Shown: positions 11,745 to 54,068, counted from the first letter of the stretch. The stretch: DNA of 64,000 nt from Ignavibacteria bacterium (GCA_016707005.1 JADJIQ010000002.1:741527-805526), one strand, 5' to 3'. Made by a program: numbers and translations. The notes: a model not told the origin generated them from the sequence alone.

Positions 11745-11880
11745 GTTACGGAGTTACGGAGTTACGGAGTTACGCAGTTACAGAGTTACGGGGTTACAGG
11801 GTTACGGGGTTACTCTAGCACTCAAACACTCTAGCAATCTCATTAGCACATTAACACACTAGCACATTAGCACATTAACT
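11745..11880. repeat. composite tandem-repeat array: GTTACGGA x about 8 followed by degenerate TAGCACTC / ATTAGCAC units
   Basis: Direct reading: gttacggagttacggagttacggagttacgcagttacagagttacggggttacagggttacggggttact then ctagcactc...ctctagcaatctcattagcacattaacacactagcacattagcacattaact; begins 10 nt from tRNA 5' end. Confidence 0.75.
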
Positions 11881-12123
11881 CGGGACTATCTCAAACGAAC
11901 TCAGCGCTTCGTCGATCACCAGGCGGACGGGGCCGTGCGGGGTAGGGAGGAGGTCGGGGTCTCCGTTTTCACCGCCGGAGAGGAAATGGGACTCTCTACG
12001 TATGTCAGACAGCCAGGCATAGAGGTCCGCGGACACTGCAACCTCCCGGGGTGCCTGTCCGTGTTCATCTACGTACCGTTCGATGGAGGCCATCAGCTCC
12101 TCGAAAGCATCGAACCATTCCAT
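11875..12123 (-). CDS. hypothetical small protein (82 aa)
   Basis: ORF only; stop codon lies inside the repeat (attaact); divergent from rpsA. Confidence 0.35.
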   Translation of the reverse strand: MEWFDAFEELMASIERYVDEHGQAPREVAVSADLYAWLSDIRRESHFLSGGENGDPDLLPTPHGPVRLVIDEALSSFEIVPS

Positions 12124-12190
12124 TTGAGCCTCACTTTCCGTGATCTGTCCGTTCCCATTGATAACAGGAAAAGTCGTGCCAAAGTTACAC

Positions 12191-12218
12191 TTGGGGATAA
12201 AAAATATTCCGTATTTTG
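12191..12218 (+). promoter_or_regulatory. putative Bacteroidota-type sigma-A promoter of rpsA (TTG ... 18 nt ... TATTTTG)
   Basis: ttggggataaaaaatattccgTATTTTG about 98 nt upstream of rpsA ATG; matches -33 TTG / -7 TAnnTTTG consensus known for Bacteroidota. Confidence 0.3.
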
Positions 12219-12315
12219 GCTGTCTTCCCCGGGCCCCAACTTTGTTGCACTATCCCTAATAGGGTCAACACGATGGCGGAGGGCCGCGCCAGCGAGTTGA
12301 CAAGGAGTTTACAAT

Positions 12316-14166
12316 ATGTCGGAACAAAACACGGGCGCAACAGAAGACATCTCTATGGAGACGGTCGCTGCTGCCTCGGAACAACCAGCACAATCAGTCC
12401 TCGGAGAACGCTCAACCAAGCGGTCGGCAATCGCCGCACTGCTCGGCGGAGAACTCGACGGCTCAGCTATGAATGATGCAGCGTTCCTTCAGCTGTTCGA
12501 CACCAAGGTGTCTACGCTCAAGGCAGACGATCTCGTTCACGGTACAGTGGTTTCGGTCACCAAGGACGAGATCCTTGTTGATATCGGTTTCAAGTCTCTC
12601 GGCGTTGTCCCACGCGCTGAATTCGTAGGCGCCGAACTTCTTGCCCCAGGCGAGACAGTAGACGTCTTCGTTGAGAAGATCGAAGACGGCGAAGGCCGCC
12701 TGATGCTCAGCCGCCGTCGCGCTGACTTCATGAAGACATGGGAAGAGATCCTCAAGCTTGCAGAAACGCAAACAGTCACTCCGGTTCGCATCCTTCGCCG
12801 CATCAAGGGCGGTATGGTTGTAGATCTTCTCGGGATCGAAGCGTTTCTTCCTGGCTCGCAGATCGACGTTCGTCCGGTACGCGACTTCGATGCATGGGTA
12901 GGCCGCACGATCGACGTACGCGTCGTGAAGGTTAACCACCCAAGTGAGAACGTTGTTGTCTCCCACAAGGTCCTCCTCGAAGAGCAACTCACGGAACAAC
13001 GCGGCAAGATCCTCGAACTGCTCGAAAAGGGTCTCGTTCTCGAAGGTACCGTCAAGGCAATCTCGGACTTCGGTGTATTCGTCGACCTCGGCGGCGTGGA
13101 CGGCCTCGTTCACATCACAGACCTTTCGTGGGGCCGCGTAGCTCATCCGAGCGAGATCGTTCAACTCGACCAACAGGTCAAGGTTGTTGTTCTCGATTTC
13201 GACGAGAACCGCAAGCGCATTTCCCTTGGCATGAAGCAGCTCACGTCGCACCCATGGGACCAGATCGGCGAGAAGTACGAGCCGGGCACAAAGGTTCGCG
13301 GAAAGGTTGTCTCCCTTACGGACTACGGTGCATTCATCGAGATCGAAAAGGGCGTGGAAGGCCTCATCCACATCAGCGAAATGAGCTGGACGCAACACGT
13401 CAAGCACCCATCACAAGTGGTTTCGCTTGGTCAAATGGTTGACGCCGTTGTCCTCAACATCGATAAGGGCGATCGCAAGCTTGCCCTCGGCATGAAGCAA
13501 CTCGAGCCGGATCCATGGAACGATCTCATGGCCAAGTATCCTATCGGATCGGTCCATAAGGGTGAAGTTCGCAACCTGACGAACTTCGGCGTCTTCATCG
13601 AACTCGAACCAGGCGTTGATGGCCTCGTGCACATCAGTGACCTCTCGTGGACGAAGAAGATCCGTCACCCGGGTGAGTTCGTGAAGAAGGGCGACAGCAT
13701 TCAAGTTGTTGTTCTTGCCGTCGATAACGAGCATCGTCGTATCTCCCTTGGTCACAAGCAGATCAGCGAAAACCCATGGGATGTGTTTGAAGGTGAATTC
13801 GGCGTTGGTACTGAGACAGAAGGCAAGATCGTCCGTCTCATCGACAAGGGTGTCATCGTCGAAATGCCGCAAGGCGTAGATGGCTTCGTCCCTGTCTCCC
13901 AACTCTCCTTCGCTCCTGTCCGCGTCATCGCCGACTTCTTCAACGTTGGAGACAATCTCCCGTTGAAGGTTGTTGAGTTCGACAAGGAACAGAAGAAGAT
14001 CGTTCTCTCTGTAGTTGAATACCTCCGCGCACGCGGCGACGAAGAAGTGGCGAAGTATAACGCCAACCATCCCGTCCCGAATGCCGACAAGTACAACGCA
14101 GATGGATCGGCCAACGCAAACACAACGATCGAAGACCTGGAAGACAGCGAACCGATCGCAGAATAA
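12316..14166 (+). CDS. rpsA: 30S ribosomal protein S1
   Basis: Six consecutive S1 RNA-binding domains (e.g. GTVVSVTKDEILVDIGFK, GTVKAISDFGVFVDLGG, GKVVSLTDYGAFIEIEKG). Confidence 0.9.
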   Translation: MSEQNTGATEDISMETVAAASEQPAQSVLGERSTKRSAIAALLGGELDGSAMNDAAFLQLFDTKVSTLKADDLVHGTVVSVTKDEILVDIGFKSLGVVPRAEFVGAELLAPGETVDVFVEKIEDGEGRLMLSRRRADFMKTWEEILKLAETQTVTPVRILRRIKGGMVVDLLGIEAFLPGSQIDVRPVRDFDAWVGRTIDVRVVKVNHPSENVVVSHKVLLEEQLTEQRGKILELLEKGLVLEGTVKAISDFGVFVDLGGVDGLVHITDLSWGRVAHPSEIVQLDQQVKVVVLDFDENRKRISLGMKQLTSHPWDQIGEKYEPGTKVRGKVVSLTDYGAFIEIEKGVEGLIHISEMSWTQHVKHPSQVVSLGQMVDAVVLNIDKGDRKLALGMKQLEPDPWNDLMAKYPIGSVHKGEVRNLTNFGVFIELEPGVDGLVHISDLSWTKKIRHPGEFVKKGDSIQVVVLAVDNEHRRISLGHKQISENPWDVFEGEFGVGTETEGKIVRLIDKGVIVEMPQGVDGFVPVSQLSFAPVRVIADFFNVGDNLPLKVVEFDKEQKKIVLSVVEYLRARGDEEVAKYNANHPVPNADKYNADGSANANTTIEDLEDSEPIAE

Positions 14167-14202
14167 TTACCGCACTCCATGCACATCTGTGCAGTCAACG
14201 AA

Positions 14203-14228
14203 GGCCCGCCATTGGCGGGCCTTTTTTT
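14203..14228 (+). terminator. rho-independent terminator after rpsA
   Basis: GGCCCGCC att GGCGGGCC followed by TTTTTTT. Confidence 0.6.
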
Positions 14229-14239
14229 ATGTTCCCACT

Positions 14240-15538
14240 ATGGACCTGAAACCCATTCTTGATGAATTGTTCGCGATGACGTTCCATGCCGGCATCAGAC
14301 CCGGCTTGGAGCGCATCACGGAGCTGTGCTCGCACCTTGATGAACCACATCTGCGCTATCCCGTCATCCACGTTGCCGGCACAAATGGCAAGGGCTCTAC
14401 CTGCTCCATGTTAGCCTCGATCCTCACCCACGCCGGGTACAAGGTTGGCCTCTACACCTCGCCGCACATCAGGCAGTTCAACGAACGTATTCGCATCAAC
14501 GGTACAATGATCTCCGATGAGGACGTGGCTCGTCTGGCTCGCCCCTTAATGGACCAGGCAAAGTCGTTCGGTGGAACGTTCTTTGAGGTCACCACAGCAA
14601 TGGCATTCCAATACTTTGCCGAGCGCAGAGTTGAGGTTGCGATCATTGAGACGGGGCTTGGCGGACGTTTTGATGCAACGAACATCGTACAGCCATTCCT
14701 GAGCATCATCACGCAGATCGATATCGACCACACGGAATACCTCGGCACAACACTTCCGCAGATCGCCGGCGAAAAGGCCGGGATCATCAAACAGGGGGCT
14801 CCTGTCGTGATCGGACATCGTTCCGGCATTGTGGTAAATGGACGGCCCGTTCCCGACATCCGAGATGTCTTCGTTCGTAAGGCAGAGTCCGCCAATACTC
14901 CGATCTCGTTCGCAGAAGACACGATCTATGTGGAAATGGATGCGATCCACCCCGACCTTACGATGACGGTGAGTGTTACGAATGACGCGGATCGCAAGTA
15001 CTACACAACCGACCTCTGTGGTCAGCATCAAACGAGCAACATCGCCACAGTGATCGCTGCCCTGCCGGCCATCAGTGAACTGTACTTCGTCGAAGAGCCA
15101 CACATACGAGAAGGACTGCTTCGCGTGAAGTCAACCTCTGGACTTTACGGACGATGCGACCTCATCAATGTAGATCCTTTCACAGTGATCGATGTATCGC
15201 ACAATCCCGGAGGCATTGCTGCCCTGCGAGACACGCTCATCGCCTCCGGCAAAACGCCGAACAGCATGCAGGTGGTCTTTGGTGCGATGTCCGATAAGGA
15301 CGTGGCTGGTATGATCGACGCCATCGCCCCGCTTGCACACACCCTACACCTATGCTCTCCTGCTCTCCCGCGCGCCCTTGCTGTGGAAGAGCTCCTCAAC
15401 CTGGCCCTGTCACGAGGCATCATGAACGCCGTAGCCCATTCGAGCGTGGCTCACGCCTACAAGGCAGCAATAGCTCATGGCCCAACCGTTGTGTGCGGGA
15501 GTTTCCATGTGATCGATGAAGTCATGCTAATGTGCTAA
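14240..15538 (+). CDS. folC: folylpolyglutamate synthase / dihydrofolate synthase
   Basis: P-loop VIHVAGTNGKGST, Mur-ligase family body; start moved to ATG at 14240 (MDLKPILDELF) right after terminator; last 4 codons and TAA stop lie inside ATGTGCTA repeat. Confidence 0.8.
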   Translation: MDLKPILDELFAMTFHAGIRPGLERITELCSHLDEPHLRYPVIHVAGTNGKGSTCSMLASILTHAGYKVGLYTSPHIRQFNERIRINGTMISDEDVARLARPLMDQAKSFGGTFFEVTTAMAFQYFAERRVEVAIIETGLGGRFDATNIVQPFLSIITQIDIDHTEYLGTTLPQIAGEKAGIIKQGAPVVIGHRSGIVVNGRPVPDIRDVFVRKAESANTPISFAEDTIYVEMDAIHPDLTMTVSVTNDADRKYYTTDLCGQHQTSNIATVIAALPAISELYFVEEPHIREGLLRVKSTSGLYGRCDLINVDPFTVIDVSHNPGGIAALRDTLIASGKTPNSMQVVFGAMSDKDVAGMIDAIAPLAHTLHLCSPALPRALAVEELLNLALSRGIMNAVAHSSVAHAYKAAIAHGPTVVCGSFHVIDEVMLMC

Positions 15539-15880
15539 TGTGCTAATGTGCTAATGTGCTAATGTGCTAATGTGCTAATGTGCTAATGTGCTAATGTGCT
15601 AATGTGCTAATGTGCTAATGTGCTAATGTGCTAATGTGCTAATGTGCTAATGTGCTAATGTGCTAATGTGCTAATGTGCTAATGTGCTAATGTGCTAATG
15701 TGCTAATGTGCTAATGTGCTAATGTGCTAATGTGCTAATGTGCTAATGTGCTAATGTGCTAATGTGCTAATGTGCTAATGTGCTAATGTGCTAATGTGCT
15801 AATGTGCTAATTTCGTGTATTAGCTCGTTAGCTAATTAGCACATTAGCACATTAGCACATTAGCACATTAGCACATTAAC
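15524..15880. repeat. foldback tandem array: ATGTGCTA x about 36 (15524-15810), 22-bp spacer, inverted ACATTAGC x 5 (15833-15880)
   Basis: Direct reading; right arm is exact reverse complement unit of left arm; array ends on the base before purH ATG. Confidence 0.9.
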
Positions 15881-17404: not shown

Positions 17405-17411
17405 TACGTTA

Positions 17412-24446: not shown

Positions 24447-25043
24447 GTGTTCACAGGATTGATCGAAGAGACAGGCGTGGTCACGTCAACGGTTGACCAA
24501 GCAGATGGCAAGCGCATCACGATCGCCGCTTCGCTAACGTTGGAAGATCTTGAGATCGACAACAGTATCGCCGTCAACGGAGTCTGCCTTACAGTGGTGG
24601 AGCGAACACCGAACACCTTTGATGTTGACGTGGTTGCTGAGACGCTGCGAAAGACAACCATCGGAATGCTTCGTCCGGATTCCGCTGTGAACCTCGAACG
24701 CGCCGTACGACTCAGCGATCGCCTTGGTGGTCACATCGTGCAAGGGCATGTAGATGCAACCGGCATCGTTGACACCATCCGCACCGGCGACGCAGGCTGG
24801 GAGATGTGGATCAGATTCCCTGCCGAGTATCGCAAGTGGCTTATTCCCGTTGGATCCGTCTGTATCAACGGCATTTCGTTGACCGTGGCAGAACTCGAGC
24901 CAGAACGATTCAAGGTGGCCATCATTCCACACACACTTTCCGTTACAACGCTCTCAACGTTGAACGAGAAGGACTCCGTCAATCTCGAATTCGACGTCCT
25001 CGCCAAATACATCGAAAACATCGCCACCTACAGAACATCATGA
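24447..25043 (+). CDS. ribE: riboflavin synthase (alpha subunit)
   Basis: MFTGLIEETGVV... duplicated lumazine-binding halves (SIAVNGVCLTVV / SVCINGISLTVA); GTG start. Confidence 0.85.
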   Translation: MFTGLIEETGVVTSTVDQADGKRITIAASLTLEDLEIDNSIAVNGVCLTVVERTPNTFDVDVVAETLRKTTIGMLRPDSAVNLERAVRLSDRLGGHIVQGHVDATGIVDTIRTGDAGWEMWIRFPAEYRKWLIPVGSVCINGISLTVAELEPERFKVAIIPHTLSVTTLSTLNEKDSVNLEFDVLAKYIENIATYRTS

Positions 25044-26536
25044 GCCTCCCAACAACGATCGGCGAGCTGAAGGCAGCAGGATATCAATACGAGTCTGTGA
25101 AGGACGAGCTACGTCGCAACGTGATCGAACGACTGCGAACCAACACGCCCATCTTCTCCGGCATCATCGGATTCGATGACACCGTGATACCGCAGATCGT
25201 GAACGCCATTCTTGCAAAGCACGATATTCTCTTGCTCGGTCTACGCGGTCAGGCAAAGACGCGCATCGCACGTCAACTCACCACGCTACTCGACGAATTC
25301 ATCCCTGTTGTCAAGGGCTCCGAGATCAACGATCATCCGTTGCGCCCCGTGTCCTACCAGGCCGTGCAGCTCGTTGCCGAACACGGAGATGCTACACCGA
25401 TCGAATGGCGTCCGCGCGAGGAACGCTATGGCGAGAAGCTTGCAACTCCAGACGTTAGTGTGGCCGACCTCATCGGAGACATCGATCCGATCAAGGCTGC
25501 CTCGCAACGTCTGCATTATGCACATGAGGGCGCCATCCACTTTGGGATCATTCCGCGCTCCAACCGAGGCATCTTTGTCATCAACGAAGTACCCGATCTT
25601 CAGCCTCGCATTCAAGTAGCGTTGTTCAACATTCTACAAGAGCGCGATATTCAGATAAGGGGCTTTAATGTTCGCCTCCCGATGGACATCGTGATGGTGT
25701 TCACGGCCAACCCTGAAGACTACACCAATCGTGGATCCATCGTTACGCCACTTAAGGACCGCATTCAGTCGCAGATCCTCACGCACTATCCGCGCAGCAT
25801 CGAAGACGGCATGGCCATCACTGCACAAGAATCATGGGTTGAGCGCTCGGGAATGCCCCTTATCATCCCTACGTATCTCAGCCAGGTTGTTGAGTCCGTT
25901 GCCATGATCGCTCGCACGAGCGAATACATCGATCAAACCAGCGGCGTTAGTGCGCGACTCACCATCTCCACGATGGAGAACATGGTCTCCAATGCCGAAC
26001 GTCGCGCCTACATCACCGGCGAGATGATCGTAGCCCCCCGACTCTGCGACCTTGGTCAGGCACTTGCAGGCATCACCGGCAAGGTGGAACTCGTCTTTGA
26101 GGGCGAAGAAGAAGGACCGCAGAAGGTTGCACGAGCACTCATCGGCAAGGCCGTGCGCGAGGTCTTCCGTCTTTCCATGCCTGATCCGAATGTGCGCAGA
26201 GCTCGTAAGGGAACTGCTGAAGAGAAACCCGATCCCTATCAGGCCATCGTCCGGTGGTTCGAACAAGGTCACGTTGTGAACATCGATGACCGAATGACAA
26301 ACGAGGAATTCTACAACGCCCTCATCGCCGTCCCCACACTCGCTCAGCTCGCATCCGTCTCGTTCCATGTAGAGACGTCAGACACTATTCGTCTAGCAAC
26401 CGCTATGGAATTCATTCTGGATGCACTGCATCAACATTCCAAGCTTGCAAAAGACGACAACAGCATGCAGACCACGTACAGAGATCTGGTGGGAAGCATT
26501 TTTACGCCGCCTTTGTCGATGACAGAGGACGAATAG
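25040..26536 (+). CDS. AAA+ ATPase, Mg-chelatase/Lon-related N-domain-like (no protease domain)
   Basis: ATG overlaps ribE stop (ATGA); Walker A LLLGLRGQAKTRIARQL, Walker B GIFVINEVPDL, sensor region; architecture resembles N-terminal ATPase part of the Lon-related protein at 17425; stop TAG is first triplet of the TAGTTAC array. Confidence 0.5.
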   Translation: MSLPTTIGELKAAGYQYESVKDELRRNVIERLRTNTPIFSGIIGFDDTVIPQIVNAILAKHDILLLGLRGQAKTRIARQLTTLLDEFIPVVKGSEINDHPLRPVSYQAVQLVAEHGDATPIEWRPREERYGEKLATPDVSVADLIGDIDPIKAASQRLHYAHEGAIHFGIIPRSNRGIFVINEVPDLQPRIQVALFNILQERDIQIRGFNVRLPMDIVMVFTANPEDYTNRGSIVTPLKDRIQSQILTHYPRSIEDGMAITAQESWVERSGMPLIIPTYLSQVVESVAMIARTSEYIDQTSGVSARLTISTMENMVSNAERRAYITGEMIVAPRLCDLGQALAGITGKVELVFEGEEEGPQKVARALIGKAVREVFRLSMPDPNVRRARKGTAEEKPDPYQAIVRWFEQGHVVNIDDRMTNEEFYNALIAVPTLAQLASVSFHVETSDTIRLATAMEFILDALHQHSKLAKDDNSMQTTYRDLVGSIFTPPLSMTEDE

Positions 26537-26627
26537 TTACTAGTTACTGGTTACTAGTTACTAGTTACTGGTTACTGGTTACTAGTTACTAGTTACTGGT
26601 TACTAGTTACTGGTTACTATTTACTAG
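26534..26627. repeat. tandem array TAGTTAC / TGGTTAC x about 13 (left arm of 4HB cassette 1)
   Basis: Direct reading tagttactagttactggttactagttac... Confidence 0.85.
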
Positions 26628-26691: not shown

Positions 26692-27090
26692 ATGGGTCAT
26701 GAACGAGATATCATAAAAGAGCGACTTGTCGCTAGTCCACTGCACATCCTTTCAATCGAGTTTTCTCGAGAGGTGCGCAGTCTTGTACGGAAGGCATTCC
26801 AACATCAGGTTGTTGAGCGAATGCCACTTGATCAACTGTATCGTTCGGGGTCCTCGGTTGGAGCGAATATCCGTGAGAGCAGATATGCAGAATCTCCAAA
26901 GGACTTTGTACATAAGCTCAAGATCGCGGAGAAAGAGCTGGGTGAATTCTTCTATTGGATTGGATTGCTGTCGTCGAAACACGACATTTTTGATGAAGAC
27001 GCTGCCGCTGCCTGCGTCAACAAAGGCACACAAGTCCAAAAGCTACTTTCTTCGATCATTGTAACAACGAAACGCAACAACAGTTTGTAA
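26692..27090 (+). CDS. four-helix-bundle protein (TIGR02436 / 23S rRNA intervening-sequence protein family)
   Basis: Family core ...VVERMPLDQLYRSGSSVGANIRESRYAESPKDFVHKLKIAEKELGEFFYWIGLL; first ATG at 26692 (ORF-track start 26656 is GTG). Confidence 0.65.
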   Translation: MGHERDIIKERLVASPLHILSIEFSREVRSLVRKAFQHQVVERMPLDQLYRSGSSVGANIRESRYAESPKDFVHKLKIAEKELGEFFYWIGLLSSKHDIFDEDAAAACVNKGTQVQKLLSSIIVTTKRNNSL

Positions 27091-27123: not shown

Positions 27124-27152
27124 GTAACTAGTAACTAGAAACTAGTAACTAG
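27124..27152. repeat. inverted array GTAACTA x 4 (right arm of 4HB cassette 1)
   Basis: gtaactagtaactagaaactagtaactag = reverse complement of left-arm unit; ends 2 nt before stop codon of convergent peptidase gene. Confidence 0.85.
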
Positions 27153-32255: not shown

Positions 32256-32389
32256 GCTTTTTAAGCGCCTTTGTAAGCGCCTTCTTCAAGCGCCTTTGTA
32301 AGCGCCTTTGTAAGCGCCTTCTTCAAGCGCCTTTGTAAGCGCCTTTGTAAGCGCCTTTGTAAGCGCCTTCTTCAAGCGCCTTTGTAAGC
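32256..32389. repeat. tandem array of 12/13-bp units AAGCGCCTTTGT / AAGCGCCTTCTTC x about 10 (left arm of 4HB cassette 2)
   Basis: Direct reading. Confidence 0.85.
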
Positions 32390-32440: not shown

Positions 32441-32899
32441 ATGTCTCTTCTTCAACTCCGCATGTATAAACGGGCCGGCGAGATCTCTGATGAGGTTGCT
32501 CTGTTTGCAAGTGCATGGCCGCACATCCATCGGAACACGATCGGAGATCAGATCATTAGAGCGGCGGATTCGATCTCAAACAACATTGCTGAAGGGTATG
32601 GCAGAACAGCAACAGGAGAACGCATCCAGTTTCTGATGTATGCCGATGGCTCGATCTCAGAAACAAGAAACTGTCTACATAGAGCATTCGGCCGGAACCT
32701 CATCGACGCAGACACCAACGCTCGACTTCAACAGCGCCTCGTATCATTGTCGATTAGTATCGTAGAGTTCGCACATGCTATAATTGAAAGAGACCCATCA
32801 TACAAGGGTCCATTCCGCGAACGAATCGCAAAACGCCGCGCCTGGCTTGTGAAGAAGCTCGCCAAGAACGGCGCAGCTCCCCCAAACGAACAATCTTAA
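32441..32899 (+). CDS. four-helix-bundle protein (TIGR02436 / 23S rRNA intervening-sequence protein family)
   Basis: Canonical family motif ...IIRAADSISNNIAEGYGRTATGERIQFLMYADGSISETRNCLHRAF...; ATG start; 152 aa. Confidence 0.8.
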   Translation: MSLLQLRMYKRAGEISDEVALFASAWPHIHRNTIGDQIIRAADSISNNIAEGYGRTATGERIQFLMYADGSISETRNCLHRAFGRNLIDADTNARLQQRLVSLSISIVEFAHAIIERDPSYKGPFRERIAKRRAWLVKKLAKNGAAPPNEQS

Positions 32900-39515: not shown

Positions 39516-39782
39516 ATGATCATGGTCAATATGCACACAGCAAAGTCAACCCTCTCACAGCTCGTAGAGGAAGCTCTCATGGGAGAGGATGTGGTTATTG
39601 CCCGCAACGGCAAGCCCGTCGCAAGGCTTGTGGCTTTCATTCCGGTTGACACATCGAAGCTTCGTCCCATTGGACTTGGGTGCACAGGAGTGCCGTTAAT
39701 CGACAATTCTGAGTTTGAGCTTTTGTCAGCCACAAACCCAGATGTCTACGAAGAGAACCCCAACGATCCGTTGAACGAATGA
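39516..39782 (+). CDS. type II antitoxin, Phd/YefM family
   Basis: MVNMHTAKSTLSQLVEEALMGEDVVIARNGKPVARLV; 4-nt overlap with downstream PIN gene. Confidence 0.7.
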   Translation: MIMVNMHTAKSTLSQLVEEALMGEDVVIARNGKPVARLVAFIPVDTSKLRPIGLGCTGVPLIDNSEFELLSATNPDVYEENPNDPLNE

Positions 39783-40174
39783 ACAAGTCACTTCTCGTTG
39801 ACACTCATACTCTTCTCTGGTACGACGATGAACCAGACAAGCTATCGGGTGCGGTTCGCAAGGTGCTTCGCAACCCCAATGCGACAATATTTGTTTCTCC
39901 TATAAGCCTCTACGAGATCGCTCAGAAGGTGCGTCGCCAATCATTGCCATCGGCAACGCATCTCGTCAACGAGATCCACGTTCGCCTTCGTTTGTATGGG
40001 TTTACTATTCTACCGGTCAATGATCACCATGCACTCCGAGCCGCTAACCTCGATTGGGATCACCGTGATCCATTTGATCGAATGATCGCAGCTCAAGCAC
40101 TCGAAGAACATTGCGTCCTCGTTACAAAGGATGTTGCCTTCGCGGGCGTGAGCGGGCTGAAGACACTTTGGTGA
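39779..40174 (+). CDS. vapC: type II toxin VapC (PIN-domain RNase)
   Basis: LLVDTHTLLWY (Asp1), ...SLYEI..., FDRMIAAQALEEHCVLVTKD (distal acidic residues). Confidence 0.8.
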   Translation: MNKSLLVDTHTLLWYDDEPDKLSGAVRKVLRNPNATIFVSPISLYEIAQKVRRQSLPSATHLVNEIHVRLRLYGFTILPVNDHHALRAANLDWDHRDPFDRMIAAQALEEHCVLVTKDVAFAGVSGLKTLW

Positions 40175-47082: not shown

Positions 47083-47808
47083 TTGCACATGCACCGACTC
47101 TTGCTCGTCGTCCTCTTCGCTACAACCTGCTCCCTCTCGGCACAAGACTGCGGCAACCTCCCATGGGAGGCCAACCTCACGTATCGAGCGAACAGCATCG
47201 AAAGCGCCTTTCTACGGGACATGTCCAAGGTAACCTCCGATGCTCTGCTGCCCCTTGCCATTGGTGTACCGGTTGGACTCTATGTGTACGGCATGATCGC
47301 ACCGGAAGGGAGCAACCTTGCAGACAAACGGTATGCTGCGGAATCCGGACTCCAGACGTTTGTGACCATGGGCCTCACGTATGGCGTTGTGATCGTTCTG
47401 AAGAACGTGATCGACAGACCAAGGCCGTATGAAGCGTATCCCGGATGCATTCAGAACTACCGTAATGATTCCGACGGATCCATGCCTTCCGGACACTCTG
47501 CCGGCTCGGCGGCCCTTGCCACCTCGCTCATTCTCAGATATCCGCAGTGGTATGTGGTAGCCCCTTCCGTTGCCTATGCCCTCTATACCGGTTTTGCCCG
47601 ACTCAATCTTGGCATGCATTATCTCACCGATGTGCTCGTGGGCTACGCAATCGGCATAGGAATCGCGCTTGGTGTGAACGCCCTCAACAATGAGTTGTTT
47701 GACCTGGCCGATCCAATTCTGCCCAATGCCGCTAACTCACAAACGATATTGTTGAACTTCACGCCAACACAGTCCATTCCTGTCTTCTCGATGAGCATCC
47801 CGCTATGA
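47083..47808 (+). CDS. PAP2-family phosphatase
   Basis: KxxxxxxRP (KNVIDRPRP), PSGHS, SRxxxxxHxxxD (ARLNLGMHYLTD). Confidence 0.7.
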   Translation: MHMHRLLLVVLFATTCSLSAQDCGNLPWEANLTYRANSIESAFLRDMSKVTSDALLPLAIGVPVGLYVYGMIAPEGSNLADKRYAAESGLQTFVTMGLTYGVVIVLKNVIDRPRPYEAYPGCIQNYRNDSDGSMPSGHSAGSAALATSLILRYPQWYVVAPSVAYALYTGFARLNLGMHYLTDVLVGYAIGIGIALGVNALNNELFDLADPILPNAANSQTILLNFTPTQSIPVFSMSIPL

Positions 47809-48593
47809 TGCGCCTCGCTACCGTACAGTTCTGTCCCGCGTACAGAGATCCGGATGCCAATACCGACTTCATTGTGGAGACCATTGCCAGTACTGAAGCG
47901 GACGTCATCGTCTTTCCCGAACTCGCCACCAGCGGATATTTCTTTGTCACCCGCGAAGAAGTAGGGGGCATTGCAGAGCCCCTTACCGGACCTCATATCA
48001 CCCGCATCATCAACGCTGCAAAAACTCACGGTCGCATAGTGATCTGCGGTTTTGCTGAGCGTGATGGAGACCGTCTCTTCAACTCAGCGGTGATTGCCGG
48101 ACCGAACATCGAAACACAGGTCTATCGCAAAACGCATCTGTTCTACAAGGAGACGCTGTGTTTTGACGAGGGCGATAGCGGTTTCTCCGTTGTTCATCTA
48201 CCCCATCTCGATTGCAATCTCGGCGTGATGATCTGCTACGACTGGCGTTTTCCTGAAAGTGCCCGGACCCTTGCACTCAAGGGAGCTGACGTGATCGCCT
48301 GCCCATCAAACCTCGTCACCCACATCTGGCGCATGGCCATGCCCGTACGCGCCCTCGAGAACAAGGTCTACCTGGCAGTGGCCAACCGCTACGGCACAGA
48401 ATCCAACACCGAAGAAGACGTCACCTTCAACGGCCAAAGCGTGATCTACTCCTACAACGGAGACGTACTGGCAAGCGCCGATGCAGTTGGCACAACCACA
48501 CTCATCACCGAGATCGACCCCACCGCCACCCGCAACAAGACATTCAATTCTGTTAATGACATCCTTGCCGATCGCCGCCCAGAGAGATACTAG
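47805..48593 (+). CDS. carbon-nitrogen hydrolase (nitrilase superfamily)
   Basis: Glu in FPELATSGY, Lys, Cys in ICYDWRFPE; ATGA overlap with PAP2 gene; stop TAG is first triplet of the downstream repeat. Confidence 0.8.
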   Translation: MMRLATVQFCPAYRDPDANTDFIVETIASTEADVIVFPELATSGYFFVTREEVGGIAEPLTGPHITRIINAAKTHGRIVICGFAERDGDRLFNSAVIAGPNIETQVYRKTHLFYKETLCFDEGDSGFSVVHLPHLDCNLGVMICYDWRFPESARTLALKGADVIACPSNLVTHIWRMAMPVRALENKVYLAVANRYGTESNTEEDVTFNGQSVIYSYNGDVLASADAVGTTTLITEIDPTATRNKTFNSVNDILADRRPERY

Positions 48594-48717
48594 TTACTGG
48601 TTACTAGTTACTGGTTACTAGTTACTTGTAACTGGTAACTGGTAACTACTAACTAGTAACTAGTAACTAGTAACTGGCAACTAGTAACTAGTACTTAGTA
48701 ACTAGTAACTTGCAACT
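48591..48717. repeat. foldback tandem array: TAGTTAC/TGGTTAC x 5 then inverted TNGTAAC x about 13, no cargo
   Basis: Direct reading; centre at about 48626; ends on base before murC ATG; same unit family as array at 26534. Confidence 0.9.
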
Positions 48718-50085
48718 ATGACGTTTTCCTCCGTTCGACACATCCACTTCGTTGGCATTGGTGGCATTGGCATGAGCGGGATCGCCGAGATCCTTCTTTC
48801 GCAGGGGTTTGTTGTCAGTGGCTCAGACCTTAACCGAAGTGAAGTAACGGACCACCTTGCAACTCTTGGGGCGCGCATCTGCATTGGGCATGATGCACAA
48901 CACGTAGATAACGCCGAGGTAGTGGTCTACTCCAGTGCCGTTCGTCCACAGGAGAACCCCGAGACGTTGTTCGCCTTGGAGCGCAAGATCCCGATCATCC
49001 GTCGGGCAGAGATGCTCAGCGAGGTCTCCCGACTGAAGTATTGTCTGGCCATTGCCGGCACTCACGGCAAGACAACCACCACGTCCATGTGTGGCATCGT
49101 GATGATGAAGGCTGGCATGGACCCAACGGTCATTGTTGGCGGACGTCTCAAGGGACTTGGTGGCACGAATGCCCGGCTTGGACAGGGCGACTGGATCGTA
49201 CTCGAGGCCGATGAATACGACCGTTCCTTCCTCCAGCTCTTGCCCACCATTGCTGTGATCACGAATGTAGAGGCGGATCACCTTGACATCTATAGTGACC
49301 TCGACGATATAAAGGGGGCGTTCATCGAGTTCTCAAACAAGGTGCCGTTCTATGGCACTGCAGTGGTCTGCTTAGATGATCCGGGCGTGCGCGCCATCCT
49401 GCCGTCCATCAAACGGGTGGTTGTCACCTACGGCATGTCTGCGCAGTGTGATGTGCGCGCTGCAGACATCAGCTACAACGAACGCTCCTCCACCTATACA
49501 CTCGTACACAAGGGGAGCCCCCTTGGAGAGATCGAGCTTCACGTACCGGGTGACCACAACGTCCGCAATTCCCTTGCTGCTTGCGCAACTGCTCTTTTGT
49601 GCGGTGTTCCGTTCGATGTGATCAGGGATGGTCTTGCAGAGTTCGGAGGCGTGTTCCGTCGGTTCGAAGTCAAGGGAGAGGTAGGGGGCATCCTGGTCGT
49701 AGACGACTATGCCCACCACCCTACCGAGATCCGCTCAACGCTCACCGCGGCCCGACGTGGTTGGAAGCGTCGGATCGTTGCCGTGTTCCAGCCGCACACC
49801 TATACCCGAACCAGGGATTTCTACGCCGAGTTCGCCACTTCCTTTGACGAGGCCGATGTTTTGATCCTCACAGACGTTTATCCGGCACGCGAAGAGCCAA
49901 TTCCGGGGGTCAATGGGAAGCTTATCGCGGACGCTGCCAGGGATGCCGGACACCGCAACGTGCACTATGTAGAAGCGCCTGCAGACATCCCGGCACTGCT
50001 CAAGACCCTGGTTTTGGAGGGCGATATGGTGCTCACAATGGGTGCCGGAGATATATGGAAAGTAGGGTCGGCACTGCTCGCCTGA
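48718..50085 (+). CDS. murC: UDP-N-acetylmuramate--L-alanine ligase
   Basis: HFVGIGGIGMSGIAEIL and Mur ligase motifs. Confidence 0.9.
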   Translation: MTFSSVRHIHFVGIGGIGMSGIAEILLSQGFVVSGSDLNRSEVTDHLATLGARICIGHDAQHVDNAEVVVYSSAVRPQENPETLFALERKIPIIRRAEMLSEVSRLKYCLAIAGTHGKTTTTSMCGIVMMKAGMDPTVIVGGRLKGLGGTNARLGQGDWIVLEADEYDRSFLQLLPTIAVITNVEADHLDIYSDLDDIKGAFIEFSNKVPFYGTAVVCLDDPGVRAILPSIKRVVVTYGMSAQCDVRAADISYNERSSTYTLVHKGSPLGEIELHVPGDHNVRNSLAACATALLCGVPFDVIRDGLAEFGGVFRRFEVKGEVGGILVVDDYAHHPTEIRSTLTAARRGWKRRIVAVFQPHTYTRTRDFYAEFATSFDEADVLILTDVYPAREEPIPGVNGKLIADAARDAGHRNVHYVEAPADIPALLKTLVLEGDMVLTMGAGDIWKVGSALLA

Positions 50086-50149
50086 CTATTTTTGTGGTTC
50101 GGGCGTCTGTGACCCCCGTATCCACTCACAATCCCAGTGTACCCATTTC

Positions 50150-52288
50150 ATGACGATCTCCGCCATGACGACGAATTCTCGTGTTCTCTCGATCGCTCTC
50201 GGTCTTGTGTGCATCGCTTCTATCGCGTCAGCCCAGAAAAGCAAAAAGTCGGCAACACCGGCAAAAACGTCAACCCCTTCCACCGTGATCGCCACGGTTG
50301 GAACAGAGAAGATCCTTCTCTCCGACGTTGAGCGCGCATTTCAAAAAAACTTGTCGCGTCGGGATACGAAGCTTACTTCAGTGCCACGAGACACCGCCCT
50401 TGAATTCCTGCGCCTCTACACGAACTATCGATTGAAGGTGCAGGACGCACACGATCGTGGTCTCGACAAGGACTCCGCAGTGAAGGTAGACCTTGCGAAC
50501 AATCGCAAGCTCCTTTCAGAGACGTTCTTCTATGACAAGGCAGTAGCTGACTCGCGAGTGGATCAGCTGTCACGTCGTAGAATGAAGGAGCTCCAGATCG
50601 GCATCATCTTGTGCGCGATCGCCGATCCGCAGACCAAACAATGGGATACGGTTGGAAGCAAGCTCAAGGCAGAACGTCTTATCGCACAACTCAACGCCGG
50701 TGCTGACTTCGAGAAGATCGCTCGTGATTCATCGGACGATAAGGAGACCGCTGCGAACGGAGGGATCCTTCCGTGGATCTCCGGCGGTTCGATCATCAAG
50801 GCCGTAGAAGACGAAGCATATTCTTTGAAGGCTGGGCAAGTGAGCCCGAAGCCCGTGAACTCGCGTTTCGGATACTTCGTGGTGAAGGTCTTCCGTGAGG
50901 AGCCCCGTGACCAAGTGAAGTTCCGTCACATCCTTCTTTCCGCAAAAGATGGCAGAGACTCAGCCGCAACAGATCGTTTTGCAGACACGCTCATCACCAT
51001 CCTCAAGATGAAGCCGGCTCAACAAGCAGCTGCATTGCGTGCGATGAAGATCGAGCCAACGGGCGATGCCTTTTCTGACCTGGCAAAGGCCGTGTCGGAC
51101 GACAAGACGTCCGCTGCCAAGGGCGGCTTCCTCGGCTCATCATATTCCCGCTCCGGCGGAATGGATGCCAATGGTTCCCGTCTTGTACCGGCCTTTGAGA
51201 ACGCGGTGTTTGCACTCAAGGATGGCGAGCTCTCCGGCAAGGTCAAGACGATCTACGGAACACACATCATGATCCGTGATTCCACCAAGAAGCCTGATGC
51301 TGTGGCGGAGCGCGACGCGGCAAAGCGCACCTATCGCAGACTTTACTTCGAAGAAGACAAGAGGATCGTTCTCGATTCTGTGAAGAAGCACCTTGGATAT
51401 CAGTGGATGGATCAAACATTGATCATGTTTATGAGTGCGATCGATACCACGAAGAACACACAAGACACAACGTGGTCACGCTCACTCACACCGTATCAAT
51501 CAGAACAGATCATCTACAAGATGCCACGCGGCCCGATCACAGTAGGCCAATTCCGCGACTCACTTCGCCTGCGCATCGATATGCGAGGATACTCGCTCAA
51601 CCGTGCCGGGCTTGAGCGTGCAATGAATCGCATCGCAGACCCACTTGCCCTAGAGCAGGCCACTGCAGACCTCGAAACGAAGTATCCGGAGTTTGCCTCG
51701 TTGATGCAAGAATTCAATGACGGCATCTTGCTCTTCAAGGTAGAAGAGAAGGAAGTCTGGAGCAAGCTACGATTTGACACTACCGATGCGCGGGTCTTCT
51801 ATGACTCAACCAAGTCGCGTTGGATGACCGAGCAGAAGTACGACCTCACCGAGCTCTACGTACTCAGCGACTCCCTTGCAAAGGCCTTGAGCGATAGAAT
51901 CAAGAAGGGCGAGAACATTGCCACACTTGCCGCACAACACACGCAACGCGAAGGTGGCAGGGATAAGAACGGCGCTGTGAAGTCGGCATCACCTAAGACC
52001 TCAAAGGTTGCAGCGAAGATCACTGCCACAACAAAGGTTGGGGACATCATCGGTCCGTTTGCAGCCGACGCCGGTTGGGCGGTCATCCGCCTTGATGCCG
52101 TTGTTCCGCCACAACAGAAGTCCTTTGAAGCAGCACTCAGTGAGCTCGCTCCGGCCTATCAGGATGCGCTGCAGAAGCGTCTCACCGAGAACTGGCTCTC
52201 CGGTGTGCGCAAGCTTCACCCTGTTGTGTATGACACCGCTGTTATCGACAAGATATGGGGCAAGGCCTCGTCAGTGAAAACGAAATGA
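50150..52288 (+). CDS. periplasmic peptidyl-prolyl isomerase, SurA/PpiD-like with several parvulin domains
   Basis: Signal peptide; repeated parvulin cores (FGYFVVKV, YGTHIMIRD, ...). Confidence 0.7.
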   Translation: MTISAMTTNSRVLSIALGLVCIASIASAQKSKKSATPAKTSTPSTVIATVGTEKILLSDVERAFQKNLSRRDTKLTSVPRDTALEFLRLYTNYRLKVQDAHDRGLDKDSAVKVDLANNRKLLSETFFYDKAVADSRVDQLSRRRMKELQIGIILCAIADPQTKQWDTVGSKLKAERLIAQLNAGADFEKIARDSSDDKETAANGGILPWISGGSIIKAVEDEAYSLKAGQVSPKPVNSRFGYFVVKVFREEPRDQVKFRHILLSAKDGRDSAATDRFADTLITILKMKPAQQAAALRAMKIEPTGDAFSDLAKAVSDDKTSAAKGGFLGSSYSRSGGMDANGSRLVPAFENAVFALKDGELSGKVKTIYGTHIMIRDSTKKPDAVAERDAAKRTYRRLYFEEDKRIVLDSVKKHLGYQWMDQTLIMFMSAIDTTKNTQDTTWSRSLTPYQSEQIIYKMPRGPITVGQFRDSLRLRIDMRGYSLNRAGLERAMNRIADPLALEQATADLETKYPEFASLMQEFNDGILLFKVEEKEVWSKLRFDTTDARVFYDSTKSRWMTEQKYDLTELYVLSDSLAKALSDRIKKGENIATLAAQHTQREGGRDKNGAVKSASPKTSKVAAKITATTKVGDIIGPFAADAGWAVIRLDAVVPPQQKSFEAALSELAPAYQDALQKRLTENWLSGVRKLHPVVYDTAVIDKIWGKASSVKTK

Positions 52289-53577
52289 AAAGCCCCATGC
52301 GCACACTCAACATCTTCTTCATGTGCCTCCTTGTACTTGGCATCCCTACCTCTGTTTGGGCCCAAGACTCCATGGAAGGTATCATTGCCATCGTTGGTCG
52401 TGAGATCGTTCTCAAGTCCGATGTAGACGGTCAGATGGAGATGTTGGCCCAGCGTGATCCGCGCGTAGACCGCAAGGACGTCAAACTGCGTCAAGCAATC
52501 CTCGATCAGCTCATCAACGAGCGCCTCATCATGACCAAGGCCATAGAGGACAGCATTGAGGTAACAGATGAAGAGATCACGCAGCGCATGGAATATCAGA
52601 TCCAAACACTGATCCAGCAATTCGGCTCAGAGAAGCGTATCGAAGACATGTACGGCATGAGCATGATGCGCATCCGACGTGAATTCCGCGATGAGATCCG
52701 CAAACGTCTTCTCGTGGAGAAGATGCAACAGAAGCAATTCGGTCAGGTCAAGGCCTCCCGTGCAGATGTGGAAGCGTTCTACGCCAAATACCGCGACTCC
52801 TTGCCTAAGGTACCGGAACGTGTAGACCTCTTCCACATCGTGAAGTACGTGAAGGCCTCCGACGAAAAGAACAAGGAAGCATACACCCTTGCCATGCGTA
52901 TCAGAGACTCCATCGTAAAAGGGGGCTCCTTCAGCGACTTCGCACGCAGGTATTCCGGAGATCCGATCTCTGCATCGAACGGTGGCGACCTCGGAACCGT
53001 TGATCGCGGCAAATTTGTCCCGGCTTTCGAAACCGCTGCATTCAACCTGTCCCCTGATGAGATCTCTCAACCAGTCGAGACGCCGTTCGGATGGCACGTT
53101 ATTCAGCTCATCAGCAAGACAGCAACCTCGATGACTGCGCGACACATCCTCATTCGCGTAGGTCAGAGCGACGAAGACCGAGAACGCGTTAAGACCGAAC
53201 TCGTTGCACTCAAACAACGTGTTGAAAAGGGCGAGAACTTTGAGACACTCGCTCGTGAATTCAGTGATGAAAAAGAGACCCAAGGCTTCGGTGGATCAAT
53301 GGGTCAGATCGAACTCGCCCGTCTTCCGGAAGAGATGCAAACATCTCTCAATGCCATGAAGGACGGTGCTGTCTCCGACCCTTCACCGTATGCCGCAGAC
53401 CCAACTAAGCCCGGCTTCCACATCCTCTACCGCAAGCGCATCATCCCTGCTCACACCCCGTCCGTCGACGAAGACTACAAACAACTCGAACAAATGGCAT
53501 CCTTCGAAAAGAAGCAACGCCTCGAACAAGAGTGGGTGCAGAAGCTGCGGAAAGAGTTGTATTGGGAAACGCGTTAG
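52285..53577 (+). CDS. surA: SurA-type chaperone / peptidyl-prolyl isomerase
   Basis: Signal peptide MKSPMRTLNIFFMCLLVLGIPTSVWAQ; SurA N-domain plus two parvulin domains (FGWHVIQLI, GFHILYRK); ATGA overlap; stop TAG is in the repeat. Confidence 0.75.
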   Translation: MKSPMRTLNIFFMCLLVLGIPTSVWAQDSMEGIIAIVGREIVLKSDVDGQMEMLAQRDPRVDRKDVKLRQAILDQLINERLIMTKAIEDSIEVTDEEITQRMEYQIQTLIQQFGSEKRIEDMYGMSMMRIRREFRDEIRKRLLVEKMQQKQFGQVKASRADVEAFYAKYRDSLPKVPERVDLFHIVKYVKASDEKNKEAYTLAMRIRDSIVKGGSFSDFARRYSGDPISASNGGDLGTVDRGKFVPAFETAAFNLSPDEISQPVETPFGWHVIQLISKTATSMTARHILIRVGQSDEDRERVKTELVALKQRVEKGENFETLAREFSDEKETQGFGGSMGQIELARLPEEMQTSLNAMKDGAVSDPSPYAADPTKPGFHILYRKRIIPAHTPSVDEDYKQLEQMASFEKKQRLEQEWVQKLRKELYWETR

Positions 53578-53618
53578 AGTGCTAGAGTGCTAGATTGTTA
53601 GAGTGCTAGATTGTTAGA
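53573..53618. repeat. tandem array of units TAGAGTGCTAGATTGT x about 3 (arm of 4HB cassette 3)
   Basis: gttagagtgctagagtgctagattgttagagtgctagattgttag. Confidence 0.85.
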
Positions 53619-53621
53619 CCC

Positions 53622-53990
53622 TCATCTGGTTTTTGGGGGTCGTTGTTGATTGCGAACTGCGGTAGATATAGACGAACTCATCAGCCGTCCAAGCTCATCA
53701 AGAAGACCATCGATCGTTTGTTTCCATGAGCTTGGCACTCCATTTCTTTCGGTGAAATGGATAGAGAGAGATTCGGCTTCTCGTAACTCCTTATGAGCAA
53801 GCTTCAGTTTGTGTATGAGGTCTCGCCGACTTTGGCAGCTCTGCGCTTCAGAGATGTTATTCATGACAGCTAGGGCGACACCCTCCGTCTGATTTCCAAG
53901 ACGAAACAGATGTTGACTGTTTACGATCCTCACAACTTCTAACAGATAGATCGATAACAGACGCGATTTTATCATTGATGGGGACGTCAT
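53622..53990 (-). CDS. four-helix-bundle protein (TIGR02436-like, divergent)
   Basis: ...NSQHLFRLGNQTEGVALAVMNNISEAQSCQSRRDLIHKLKLAHKELREAESL aligns with the NIAEG...F..L.IA.GS..E motif region of the other two copies; track start 54032 is a GTG inside the repeat, first ATG at 53990. Confidence 0.55.
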   Translation of the reverse strand: MTSPSMIKSRLLSIYLLEVVRIVNSQHLFRLGNQTEGVALAVMNNISEAQSCQSRRDLIHKLKLAHKELREAESLSIHFTERNGVPSSWKQTIDGLLDELGRLMSSSISTAVRNQQRPPKTR

Positions 53991-54024
53991 CCTTCTATGT
54001 GCTACTAACACCACAGAACGTGAC

Positions 54025-54068
54025 TCTAGCACTCTAACAATCTAGCACTCTAACAATCTAGCACTCTA
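54025..54068. repeat. inverted array CTCTAGCACTCTAACAAT x about 2.5 (other arm of 4HB cassette 3)
   Basis: Exact reverse complement of 53573 array unit; ends 6 nt before stop of OMP gene. Confidence 0.85.

Follow-up and report, generated by a model that had tools for sequence, protein, structure and literature searches.

PF05635 gene cassettes with tandem-repeat arms, and their loop-less remains, lie flush with codon boundaries at gene junctions of an Ignavibacteria bacterium

Introduction

Two kinds of repeat-bearing elements described in bacteria come close to the arrays considered here. The first is the TAACTGA heptamer, which forms direct repeats in Beggiatoaceae, Cyanobacteria and five Bacteroidetes, mostly just upstream of start codons at a modal distance of 1 nt, with 13-14 sets overlapping the upstream stop; these repeats offer stops in all three frames and few Shine-Dalgarno sites, and either a translational role or a mobile repeat-binding protein has been proposed for them, their origin being left open (MacGregor, 2015; PMC4679880). 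The second is the intervening sequence (IVS) of 23S rRNA, known with an S23p open reading frame (ORF) from Leptospira, Coxiella, Xanthomonas and Brucella. A terminal stem of 28 bp closes the loop that contains this ORF, which has the sense orientation relative to the host transcript; the whole element is cut out by RNase III, and tandem heptamers at its end vary in number among strains. Such elements are regarded as selfish, and their means of spread is unknown (PMC4990558). Here, we analyze a window of 64,000 nt, one strand of the Ignavibacteria bacterium genome GCA_016707005.1 (JADJIQ010000002.1:741527-805526), in which short tandem-repeat arrays lie flush with the starts and stops of genes. 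These arrays are the arms of intergenic cassettes carrying a gene of PF05635, a family of four-helix-bundle proteins initially discovered within 23S rRNA intervening sequences, or the loop-less remains of such cassettes. Their preferred sites are gene junctions that follow a stop codon or separate convergent genes.

The six elements of the window (A1 to A6) share with the TAACTGA repeats tandem 7-nt intergenic units (in the arrays starting at 26534, 27124 and 48589), a position near starts, overlap with upstream stops, strain differences in steps of whole units, and relatives with shorter, repeat-free gaps. They differ in their unit sequences, which are TAACTAG/TAACTGG (one mismatch), TAATGTGC, TAGAGTGC and others, in the presence of 8-, 12- and 13-nt units, in facing stops or convergent junctions more often than starts, and in their host, which belongs to the Kapabacteria. 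In addition, the arrays here form inverted pairs enclosing PF05635 genes, whereas the published survey reported one inverted set and no associated gene (PMC4679880). Since the same geometry has been published for the TAACTGA repeats, the flush pattern as such was already known. With the rRNA intervening sequences the elements share a PF05635 ORF in a loop between complementary termini (stems are predicted for A2-A6, not for A1), an orientation sense to the neighbors, and variable tandem repeats. Unlike those sequences, which reside in helix 25 or 45 of 23S rRNA, they are hosted by junctions of protein or tRNA genes, their arms are long tandem arrays of up to 36 units, empty loop-less versions exist, and excision, which is known for the IVS, would apply here by analogy. 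An Rfam scan of the window returned tRNA and SRP RNA only and no 23S rRNA host site, the hosts being junctions between protein genes.

More distant likenesses exist. Repetitive extragenic palindromes (REP), the bacterial interspersed mosaic elements (BIME) and the REPIN-RAYT systems consist of extragenic imperfect palindromes of 20-40 nt, RAYT being a single-copy IS200/IS605-like Y1 transposase flanked by inverted REPs. Like these, the present elements place repeats after stops and between convergent genes, flank a gene with inverted copies and would form hairpins in transcripts; unlike REPIN-RAYT, they are built of tandem 7-13-mers, enclose a PF05635 gene and occur as several cassettes, each with its own unit. 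Hairpin-forming miniature inverted-repeat transposable elements (MITEs) such as Correia/NEMIS and ERIC are likewise small inverted-repeat elements of gene junctions, co-transcribed, open to cleavage by RNase III and sometimes altering gene ends, but their unique terminal inverted repeats, TA target duplication and known transposase ancestry were not found here. The bAvd protein (PF22296), an accessory of diversity-generating retroelements (DGRs), belongs to the same four-helix-bundle fold family, and the heptamer-associated PF05635 proteins match it weakly, below the Pfam cut-off; unlike bAvd systems, the window contains no reverse transcriptase, template repeat or variable repeat.

A literature search, its scope lying outside subscription journals, found no description of PF05635 genes between tandem-array arms, nor of these unit sequences. 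The PF05635 cassette with inverted arms appears to be undescribed, and it appears to link the TAACTGA-type repeats with the rRNA intervening sequences. It offers a testable context for a very large protein family of unknown function (PF05635/S23p, related to the Avd protein of DGRs) and for short repeats, so far unexplained, that lie between genes in Bacteroidota, Cyanobacteria and Beggiatoaceae. Flush, stop-donating arrays themselves are not new in kind, and they barely change the proteins that they touch.

Data and Methods

The gene map of the window consists of gene calls transferred from closely related metagenome-assembled genomes (MAGs); MurC and PurH proteins identical to those of the window occur in a set of wastewater MAGs. 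Arrays were located with Tandem Repeats Finder, and their boundaries were then read directly from the sequence. The junction statistics cover the 38 junctions mapped between 10.2 and 56 kb. The comparison set comprises 80 loci, one genome per species and mostly from Bacteroidota, gathered by a scan with an alignment of three PF05635 proteins. Flushness in this set was scored only on stop-to-stop ORFs of at least 150 codons, the gene calls being ORF-based and the start codons uncertain; a start-facing edge was counted if the earliest ATG in frame lay no more than 10 nt from the array edge. Syntenic contigs of related species were obtained via graded orthologues of PurH, a 636-aa protein and MurC, in records named Candidatus Kapabacteria and Ignavibacteria, and the direction of change at several sites is based on two to four relatives. 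The arrays also occur in independent Nanopore and Illumina assemblies, with copy numbers that differ at A2, A4 and A5 and with noisy repeat units in the Nanopore assemblies, and are therefore not assembly artefacts.

PF05635 Genes between Inverted Arrays

Short-unit arrays (7-, 8- and 12/13-nt units) were found at 11740-11877, 15525-15878, 26534-26627, 27124-27152, 32257-32389, 32902-33157, 48589-48718, 53575-53618 and 54023-54068. A first-pass annotation of the stretch had counted seven array loci; the arrays occupy six junctions, those at 26534/27124, 32257/32902 and 53575/54023 being the paired arms of single elements. They resolve into three inverted pairs around a gene (TAGTTAC / GTAACTA; CTTTGTAAGCGC / AAGGCGCTTGAAC; TAGAGTGC / ACTCTAGC), two abutting inverted pairs (TGCTAATG x36 followed by ATTAGCAC x7.5; TAGTTAC x5 followed by GTAACTA x13), in which the loop has been lost, and one composite of three unit types. 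The units, 7-13 nt long and individually non-palindromic, run head to tail without unique spacers, on which ground a CRISPR (clustered regularly interspaced short palindromic repeats) array was rejected. On either strand, the polarity of an element is 5'-(TAATGTGC / TAGAGTGC / TAGTTAC / TAAGCGCCTTTG)n ... (reverse complement)n-3'. Pfam identifies three PF05635 genes in the window, all of them between arms and representing three subfamilies with three unit types; there are no others.

The same design recurs in Bacteroidota and Kapabacteria. At the comparison loci, an array lies within 300 nt of 77 of the 87 PF05635 genes that have enough flanking sequence (Pfam membership confirmed), against a background of 1.4 arrays per 10 kb; 48 of the 87 have arrays on both sides, and in 34 the units of the two sides are reverse-complementary within two mismatches. 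The polarity is constant, with a left arm of T[AG]AT[GT]TGN and its complement on the right, and the unit cores are conserved over phylum-level distances together with this polarity and the inverted pairing. The PF05635 gene points in the direction of its neighbors at every tandem junction (16/16). Furthermore, the repeat period tracks the PF05635 subfamily even inside one genome, octamers accompanying the clade of query-like proteins and heptamers another one (Fisher p = 6e-5), and the unit class was common to the nearest protein relatives in 38 of 42 cases. Both results show that a gene moves together with its arms, which is no proof of recognition.

The arms of an element, being mutually reverse complementary, can pair into a long stem. 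The predicted fold of A5 reaches -69 kcal/mol (z = -6.9), that of A6 contains an arm-arm stem of ~35 bp closing the gene (z = -7.8), and A2-A4 are predicted to fold likewise.

Several Cytophagia/Flavobacteriia MAGs (L051 8176-8729, L052 8151-8689, L038, L086 and L019) contain two cassettes ~1.5 kb apart. In one of them, heptamer arms of the TAACTTC/GAAGTTA type enclose a strongly PF05635-like gene that weakly resembles bAvd; the other has octamer arms. Contigs titled 'Candidatus Didemnitutus sp.' (L013, DATGWS010000039.1) and 'Hyphomicrobiales' (L016, CAYXQJ010000015.1) also carry the cassette family; the former is syntenic with the window at ~82% nucleotide identity and so looks mis-binned or mis-named. 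A metagenome scan with the PF05635 protein of the 13-mer cassette (A4) returned only itself.

Flush Placement at Codon Boundaries

The residual non-array DNA at the six array junctions of the window amounts to 5, 2, 2, 1, 0 and 6 nt, while the array-free junctions hold 1125 nt of intergenic DNA in total. Under uniform insertion into intergenic DNA, the probability that both sides fall within 6 nt is 0.046 per site and ~1e-8 for all six; if every junction is taken as equally likely regardless of its length, the probability rises to 0.55 per site and 0.028 overall. The window is compact, 21 of its 38 junctions having no more than 6 nt of non-array DNA and 11 of the 32 free junctions being 4-nt overlaps. 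The flush pattern is real, and it partly reflects a very compact genome.

Five stops in use lie within arrays, those of the AAA+ ATPase, SurA-like, CN-hydrolase, 82-aa and folC genes. The first-pass annotation had assigned all five to the first repeat unit, which is correct except for folC, whose stop sits in the second. It had also placed the starts of purH and murC on the base after an array; both are near-flush, purH beginning 0-2 nt after the array and murC sharing the last array base as the A of its ATG. Its remaining observations on position were borne out, namely that two convergent genes stop 2-6 nt past an array (the M28 peptidase gene at 2 nt and a gene for a 655-aa protein at 6 nt) and that one array, ending at 33157, overlaps the pcrA stop (33156-33158).

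The annotation also ascribed to all unit types stops in several frames and on both strands, which is true of most 7- and 8-mers and fails for three units: ACGGAGTT has none on the plus strand, the 12-mer has one frame on the plus strand and none on the minus strand, and the 13-mer has none on the minus strand. If the length of a unit is not a multiple of three, as with 7 or 8 nt, a single stop triplet is met in every frame after at most 8 codons. Any frame that enters such an array is thus bound to end in it, and the non-trivial part of the pattern is the coincidence of native ORF ends with array edges.

This coincidence extends to other genomes. At the comparison loci, the stop lies inside the array or within 10 nt of it at 101 of 154 stop-facing outer edges (66%), compared with a null expectation of 0.076. 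The commonest arrangement has the stop as the first 3 nt of the array, an array-coded tail was seen at 39 edges, and the offsets from stop to array edge range from -31 to +10 nt. The first in-frame ATG lies within 10 nt at 30 of 82 start-facing edges, often as ..GCACATTA-N2-5-ATG. At one locus (L075, a Bacteroidia contig) all four codon boundaries are flush: the upstream TAA is in the first unit, the PF05635 gene starts with an ATG behind the left arm and stops at a TAG within the right arm's first unit, and the downstream ATG overlaps the last unit. With regard to gene orientation, elements occupy 51 tandem, 22 convergent and 1 divergent junctions, versus 496, 77 and 92 among array-free controls (p = 3.5e-7); divergent junctions are shunned, with 1 of 74 elements where 14% would be expected. 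As the annotation had anticipated, comparison with random placement, in the window and at the 80 loci, shows array edges enriched at codon boundaries.

Elements and Adjoining Genes

In the following, the arms of A2 to A6 are given on the plus strand. The left arm of A3 (26534-26627, TAGTTAC x13) opens with the TAG stop (26534-26536) of the plus-strand AAA+ ATPase gene (25040-26536). Its loop holds a plus-strand PF05635 gene (26692-27090; 23S rRNA IVS protein / four-helix-bundle), and its right arm (27124-27152, GTAACTA x4) ends 2 nt before the stop of the M28 peptidase gene (27155-27157, minus strand).

The left arm of A4 (32257-32389) is composed of CTTTGTAAGCGC 12/13-mers arranged in a 37-nt higher-order repeat of two 12-mers and one 13-mer, and the TAG stop of HisK (32253-32255) ends 1 nt before it. 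The PF05635 gene in the loop (32441-32899, plus strand) is the one that comes closest to XCC0516 (PDB 2gsc), a solved four-helix-bundle protein. The right arm (32902-33157, AAGGCGCTTGAAC x20) is the one that overlaps the stop of pcrA, a minus-strand gene, and the end of pcrA, GCTTTGTAAGCGCC, equals one A4 unit: the stretch at 33151-33164 on the minus strand, made up of the last two codons, the stop and GCGCC, has exactly the sequence of the unit. The idea that the A4 unit arose on the spot from the end of pcrA was considered, since the unit comprises the last two pcrA codons and the stop, and was dropped; array-free relatives keep unit-like remnants, with which copying in either direction would agree.

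The left arm of A6 (53575-53618, TAGAGTGC / TAGATTGT in a 16-nt higher-order unit) begins with the TAG stop (53575-53577) of the plus-strand SurA-like gene (52285-53577). The PF05635 gene of A6 lies on the minus strand (53622-54032; the MAG call is 53622-53933, 103 aa), and the right arm (54023-54068, ACTCTAGC / ACTCTAAC) is followed after 6 nt by the stop of the gene for the 655-aa protein (54075-54077, minus strand).

Of the two loop-less pairs, A2 consists of a perfect left array (15525-15811, TGCTAATG x36), whose copy number varies between strains, and a right arm (15819-15880, ATTAGCAC x7.5) that is its reverse complement and ends 0-2 nt before the purH ATG (15881). The last four codons (MLMC) and the TAA (15536-15538) of folC (14240-15538, plus strand) are array-coded. 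In A5, the array begins at 48589, and the TAG stop (48591-48593) of the CN-hydrolase (nitrilase-family) gene (47805-48593, plus strand) lies within its first unit; the left arm (48589-48626) is (AC)TAGTTAC/TGGTTAC x5 and the right arm (48627-48718) GTAACTA/GTAACTG x13, position 48718 being the base shared with the murC ATG.

The composite A1 (11740-11877) contains ACGGAGTT x9, ACTCTAGC x3.6 and CATTAGCA x4.6 and fills the space between the 5' end of a tRNA-Arg(TCT) gene (11660-11734, minus strand), which lies 5 nt from the array, and the stop of the conserved 82-aa ORF (11875-12123, minus strand). The TAA of that ORF (TTA at 11875-11877) is the last 3 nt of A1 and, on its own strand, the first 3 nt of a TAATGTGC unit. 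In a relative (L094), a unique 78-nt spacer separates the 82-aa gene from tRNA-Arg, and this spacer is wholly replaced by arrays in the window. The 5-nt distance and the replaced spacer imply either that the tRNA promoter lies in the repeats or that the tRNA is co-transcribed with the 82-aa gene. A reading of the left-arm units as Bacteroidetes -7 promoter boxes (TAnnTTTG) was dropped by reasoning, TAATTTGC having the wrong internal spacing and TAATGTGC being a poor match.

Gene Ends and Array-Free Sites in Relatives

The arrays donate TAA or TAG to adjoining genes, leaving stops within 0-4 codons of their ancestral position. Accordingly, the suggestion that gene ends are being rewritten by the repeats applies to short tails only: alignment of the C-termini with orthologues revealed array-coded tails of 0-4 terminal codons, with stops that are otherwise native and protein lengths that are kept. 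Written up to the stop codon, the ends of the proteins with unchanged length are M28 peptidase ..YVPAGFEE, PcrA ..ARLE[AT]L, HisK ..TFSIPRAA, SurA ..ELYWE[TVI]R, the 82-aa protein ..FEI[VI]PS, which in L094 has the same length and a TGA stop, and the 655-aa protein ..SRSW, which is constant across cassette variants. Changes are seen in FolC, where the tails DEV-MLMC of the window and DEV-VLEC of L093 are both array-coded and array-free relatives have DEV-MLVR and DEA-VSEYKCQSK, and in the nitrilase, which ends ..RRPERY versus ..RRPEFYS and ..RRPNLYSSQS in relatives, a loss of 1-4 residues. The AAA ATPase has an acidic tail that varies among relatives.

Several sites are known in an empty state. 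The nitrilase/murC site is an ATGA stop/start overlap in two species (L104 and L105), the AAA/M28 site reads TAG-GGG-CTA, with a 3-nt gap, in L096, and at the folC end of L094 the convergent stops of folC and a UbiA-family gene overlap in TTAG. At the AAA/M28 site of another relative (L097 11776-11838), a 39-nt gap contains mini-arrays of AGAGATGA x5 and GTAATTN x3, and the ATPase owes its acidic tail, RDEETE, to the 8-mers. A relative with 95% MurC identity (L103 6866-6915) has a non-repeat center of ~50-70 nt between the nitrilase/murC arms, which may be the remnant of a former loop.

The UbiA-family gene (~420-450 aa) lies between folC and purH in relatives (L093 459-1932, L094 4620-5984, L095 4626-5882). 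In L093 it is flanked by one array on each side, and in the window it is absent, the two inverted A2 arrays (15525-15880) standing in its place. Judged from these relatives, the species of the window seems to have lost the host UbiA gene from the space that the arms enclose, the A2 palindrome being what remains. A further kind of change is found in L096 (7388-7963), which has the HisK/pcrA sequence of the window minus the whole cassette and the HisK stop, so that HisK reads ~160 nt into antisense pcrA; this junction suggests an excision of the A4 cassette that removed the HisK stop as well.

Turnover, Exchange, and Inversion of Cassettes

The arms vary in copy number and act as portable homology, and cassettes swap and invert between strains and species. 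The clearest case is the SurA site (window 53575-54068; L001-L006 14860-15400; L013 3795-4329; L014 9890-10413). Within one species, the window and one strain carry the TAGAGTGC cassette with its gene on the minus strand, and five other strains (L001 and L003-L006) have a TAATGTGC cassette instead, whose PF05635 gene is 48% identical and lies on the plus strand. The species of L013, whose flanks share ~82% nucleotide identity with the window, has the cassette of the window at 91% identity with the gene inverted and the outer junctions the same, and another species carries the second cassette type, likewise in the opposite orientation. Between the window and the species with the inverted cassette, the PF05635 gene shows dS 0.24 and dN 0.05 (dN/dS ~0.2), versus dS 1.4 and dN 0.054 for the adjacent gene of the 655-aa protein, which indicates that the cassette is far more recent than the site it occupies and evolves under purifying selection.

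Where TAATGTGC fills an array, one or two TAGAGTGC units persist at its outer edge, which points to recombination inside the arms with the codon junction inherited unchanged. Similarly, sites stay occupied across species of ~80% nucleotide identity while their contents change. The arms drive the exchange and inversion of cassettes, and through them an enclosed host gene can disappear, as apparently happened to UbiA here, or now and then a neighbor's stop. Gene ends and start contexts can consist of repeat DNA. For annotation, stops and starts within such arrays are real, and short-read assemblies break there.

A Proposed Route to Flush Placement

We consider it reasonably probable that the arrays, as arms of PF05635 cassettes or their loop-less remains, came to lie flush through the combined effect of tight junctions, outward deletion and stop-rich units. 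As for the first, the genome is very compact, and several of the occupied junctions were formerly stop/start or stop/stop overlaps or 3-nt gaps, as far as the empty sites tell. Secondly, spacers, where there were any, have given way to arrays, and comparison of relatives suggests that deletions would start in the unstable array or hairpin and run outward until purifying selection halts them at the first needed codon, and microhomology between the TAA or TAG of a unit and the gene's own stop would favor in-register joints. Thirdly, a frame that loses its own stop would be closed within 8 codons, because nearly every unit carries TAA or TAG; in the cases aligned here, 0-4 terminal codons are rewritten and protein length is kept. 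In a read-through transcript the arms would pair, and the base of the stem would bring the upstream stop beside the downstream start. By analogy with the rRNA intervening sequences, RNase III probably cuts the stem, which would render the insertion harmless to its neighbors and release the PF05635 mRNA.

Several points weigh against this account. We found no enzyme for the first colonization of a new site. The units of A1 are non-complementary and fold weakly (-22 kcal/mol) with no long hairpin, so the hairpin is not universal among the elements. The 80 comparison loci were gathered through one PF05635 clade, a sample that leaves aside arrays with no PF05635 history, and the covariation of unit and protein may reflect linkage only. 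Unit-like remnants are kept at the array-free folC end of L094 and pcrA end of L096, so empty sites may be scars, and a pre-existing tight junction is not secure for every site. Finally, in L093 an array stands exactly at the purH ATG inside a 168-nt gap, with the conserved upstream leader intact, which looks like a positional preference not fully explained by erosion plus selection.

A bolder proposal, which we offer tentatively, is that PF05635 genes and arms form one self-propagating unit, in which each subfamily recognizes a repeat of its own (7, 8 or 13 nt long), be it in DNA or in RNA, and maintains, spreads or exchanges the arms; the rRNA intervening sequences, the TAACTGA-type repeats and the cassettes would then have a common origin. 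If so, the flush, stop-donating geometry would be the means of a harmless life in operons, the stem base rejoining stop and start while the loop is excised.

Alternative Explanations

The arrays could instead be host regulatory repeats of the TAACTGA type, selected directly upstream of starts where they replace the Shine-Dalgarno sequence, their overlap with stops following from the closeness of genes and the PF05635 genes being incidental. The published geometry is identical, including the largest class, which ends 1 nt before the ATG (MacGregor, 2015; PMC4679880), the right-arm heptamer TAACTAG/TAACTGG is 1 nt from TAACTGA and runs in the same 'forward' orientation towards murC, and more than a third of the start-facing edges in other genomes (30 of 82) have an ATG within 10 nt. 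A function at start codons, however, predicts neither the excess of stop-facing over start-facing edges (154 versus 82) nor the enrichment of convergent junctions. Moreover, the arrays are paired inversely around PF05635 genes, their period follows the subfamily of the enclosed gene and not the host, and their content is replaced and their copy number varied between strains while the neighbors remain unchanged. We therefore regard a purely regulatory origin as rather unlikely.

Less probable still is a MITE-like, non-autonomous transposon that targets stop-like sites (TA, CTAG or TTAG), with the arrays as its terminal inverted repeats and flushness as the outcome of target choice. Elements do start with TAG or TAA and end with CTA or TTA, units contain CTAG, TTAG or CTAA, the sites include ATGA, TTAG and TAG..CTA junctions, one array in a long gap lies exactly at an ATG, and unit types are shared among several loci of one genome. 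Yet no transposase was found in or next to the elements, the enclosed genes being only PF05635 or the host UbiA gene, and a tblastn search of the A6 protein against plasmids and phages gave no match. No consistent target duplication was seen, although a TA duplication would be indistinguishable from the TAG..CTA ends and the filled and empty pairs are highly diverged. The offsets are spread over ~40 nt (-31 to +10 nt) instead of being fixed, and a single target site, in the sense of the specificity for stop codons or TA-containing sites suggested in the first-pass annotation, is not supported. No two loci share an identical full-length copy, and sites that remain occupied across species while their contents change fit recombination in place better than repeated transposition.

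We give a similarly low probability to insertion or birth anywhere in the genome followed by purifying selection only, flushness being a by-product of compactness. In its favor are the 21 of 38 window junctions within 6 nt, the per-junction probability of only 0.028, and the empty A5 and A3 sites, which are an overlap and a 3-nt gap. Counted per nucleotide of tolerated target, by contrast, the probability is ~1e-8; a 78-nt spacer has been replaced at A1, and in other, less compact genomes 66% of the stop-facing edges lie within 10 nt, where 7.6% would be expected. The annotation had offered, as its second explanation, selection for insertions that replace a native stop without damaging ORFs. 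This stands insofar as arrays do supply stops and the surviving arrangements keep ORFs intact, but pure selection acting on random insertions fails, as the arrays shun the 1125 nt of free intergenic DNA and divergent junctions, and the L093 array abuts the purH ATG in its 168-nt gap.

Slippage microsatellites, phase-variation (contingency) repeats or an assembly artefact are very improbable: strain differences in copy number and noisy Nanopore units would fit, but the arrays recur in assemblies made independently from Illumina and Nanopore reads, unit cores, polarity and inverted pairing are conserved across phylum-level distances, and arrays stand after stops or before starts with all frames closing within 8 codons, so that the gain or loss of 7 or 8 nt is unable to switch the ORF upstream.

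Other Features of the Window

Two further features of the stretch were recorded. [quoted passage not shown] In addition, genes for a PhdYeFM antitoxin and a PIN toxin, which overlap by 4 nt, form a pair at 39516-40174 that is kept in all strains and in L096.

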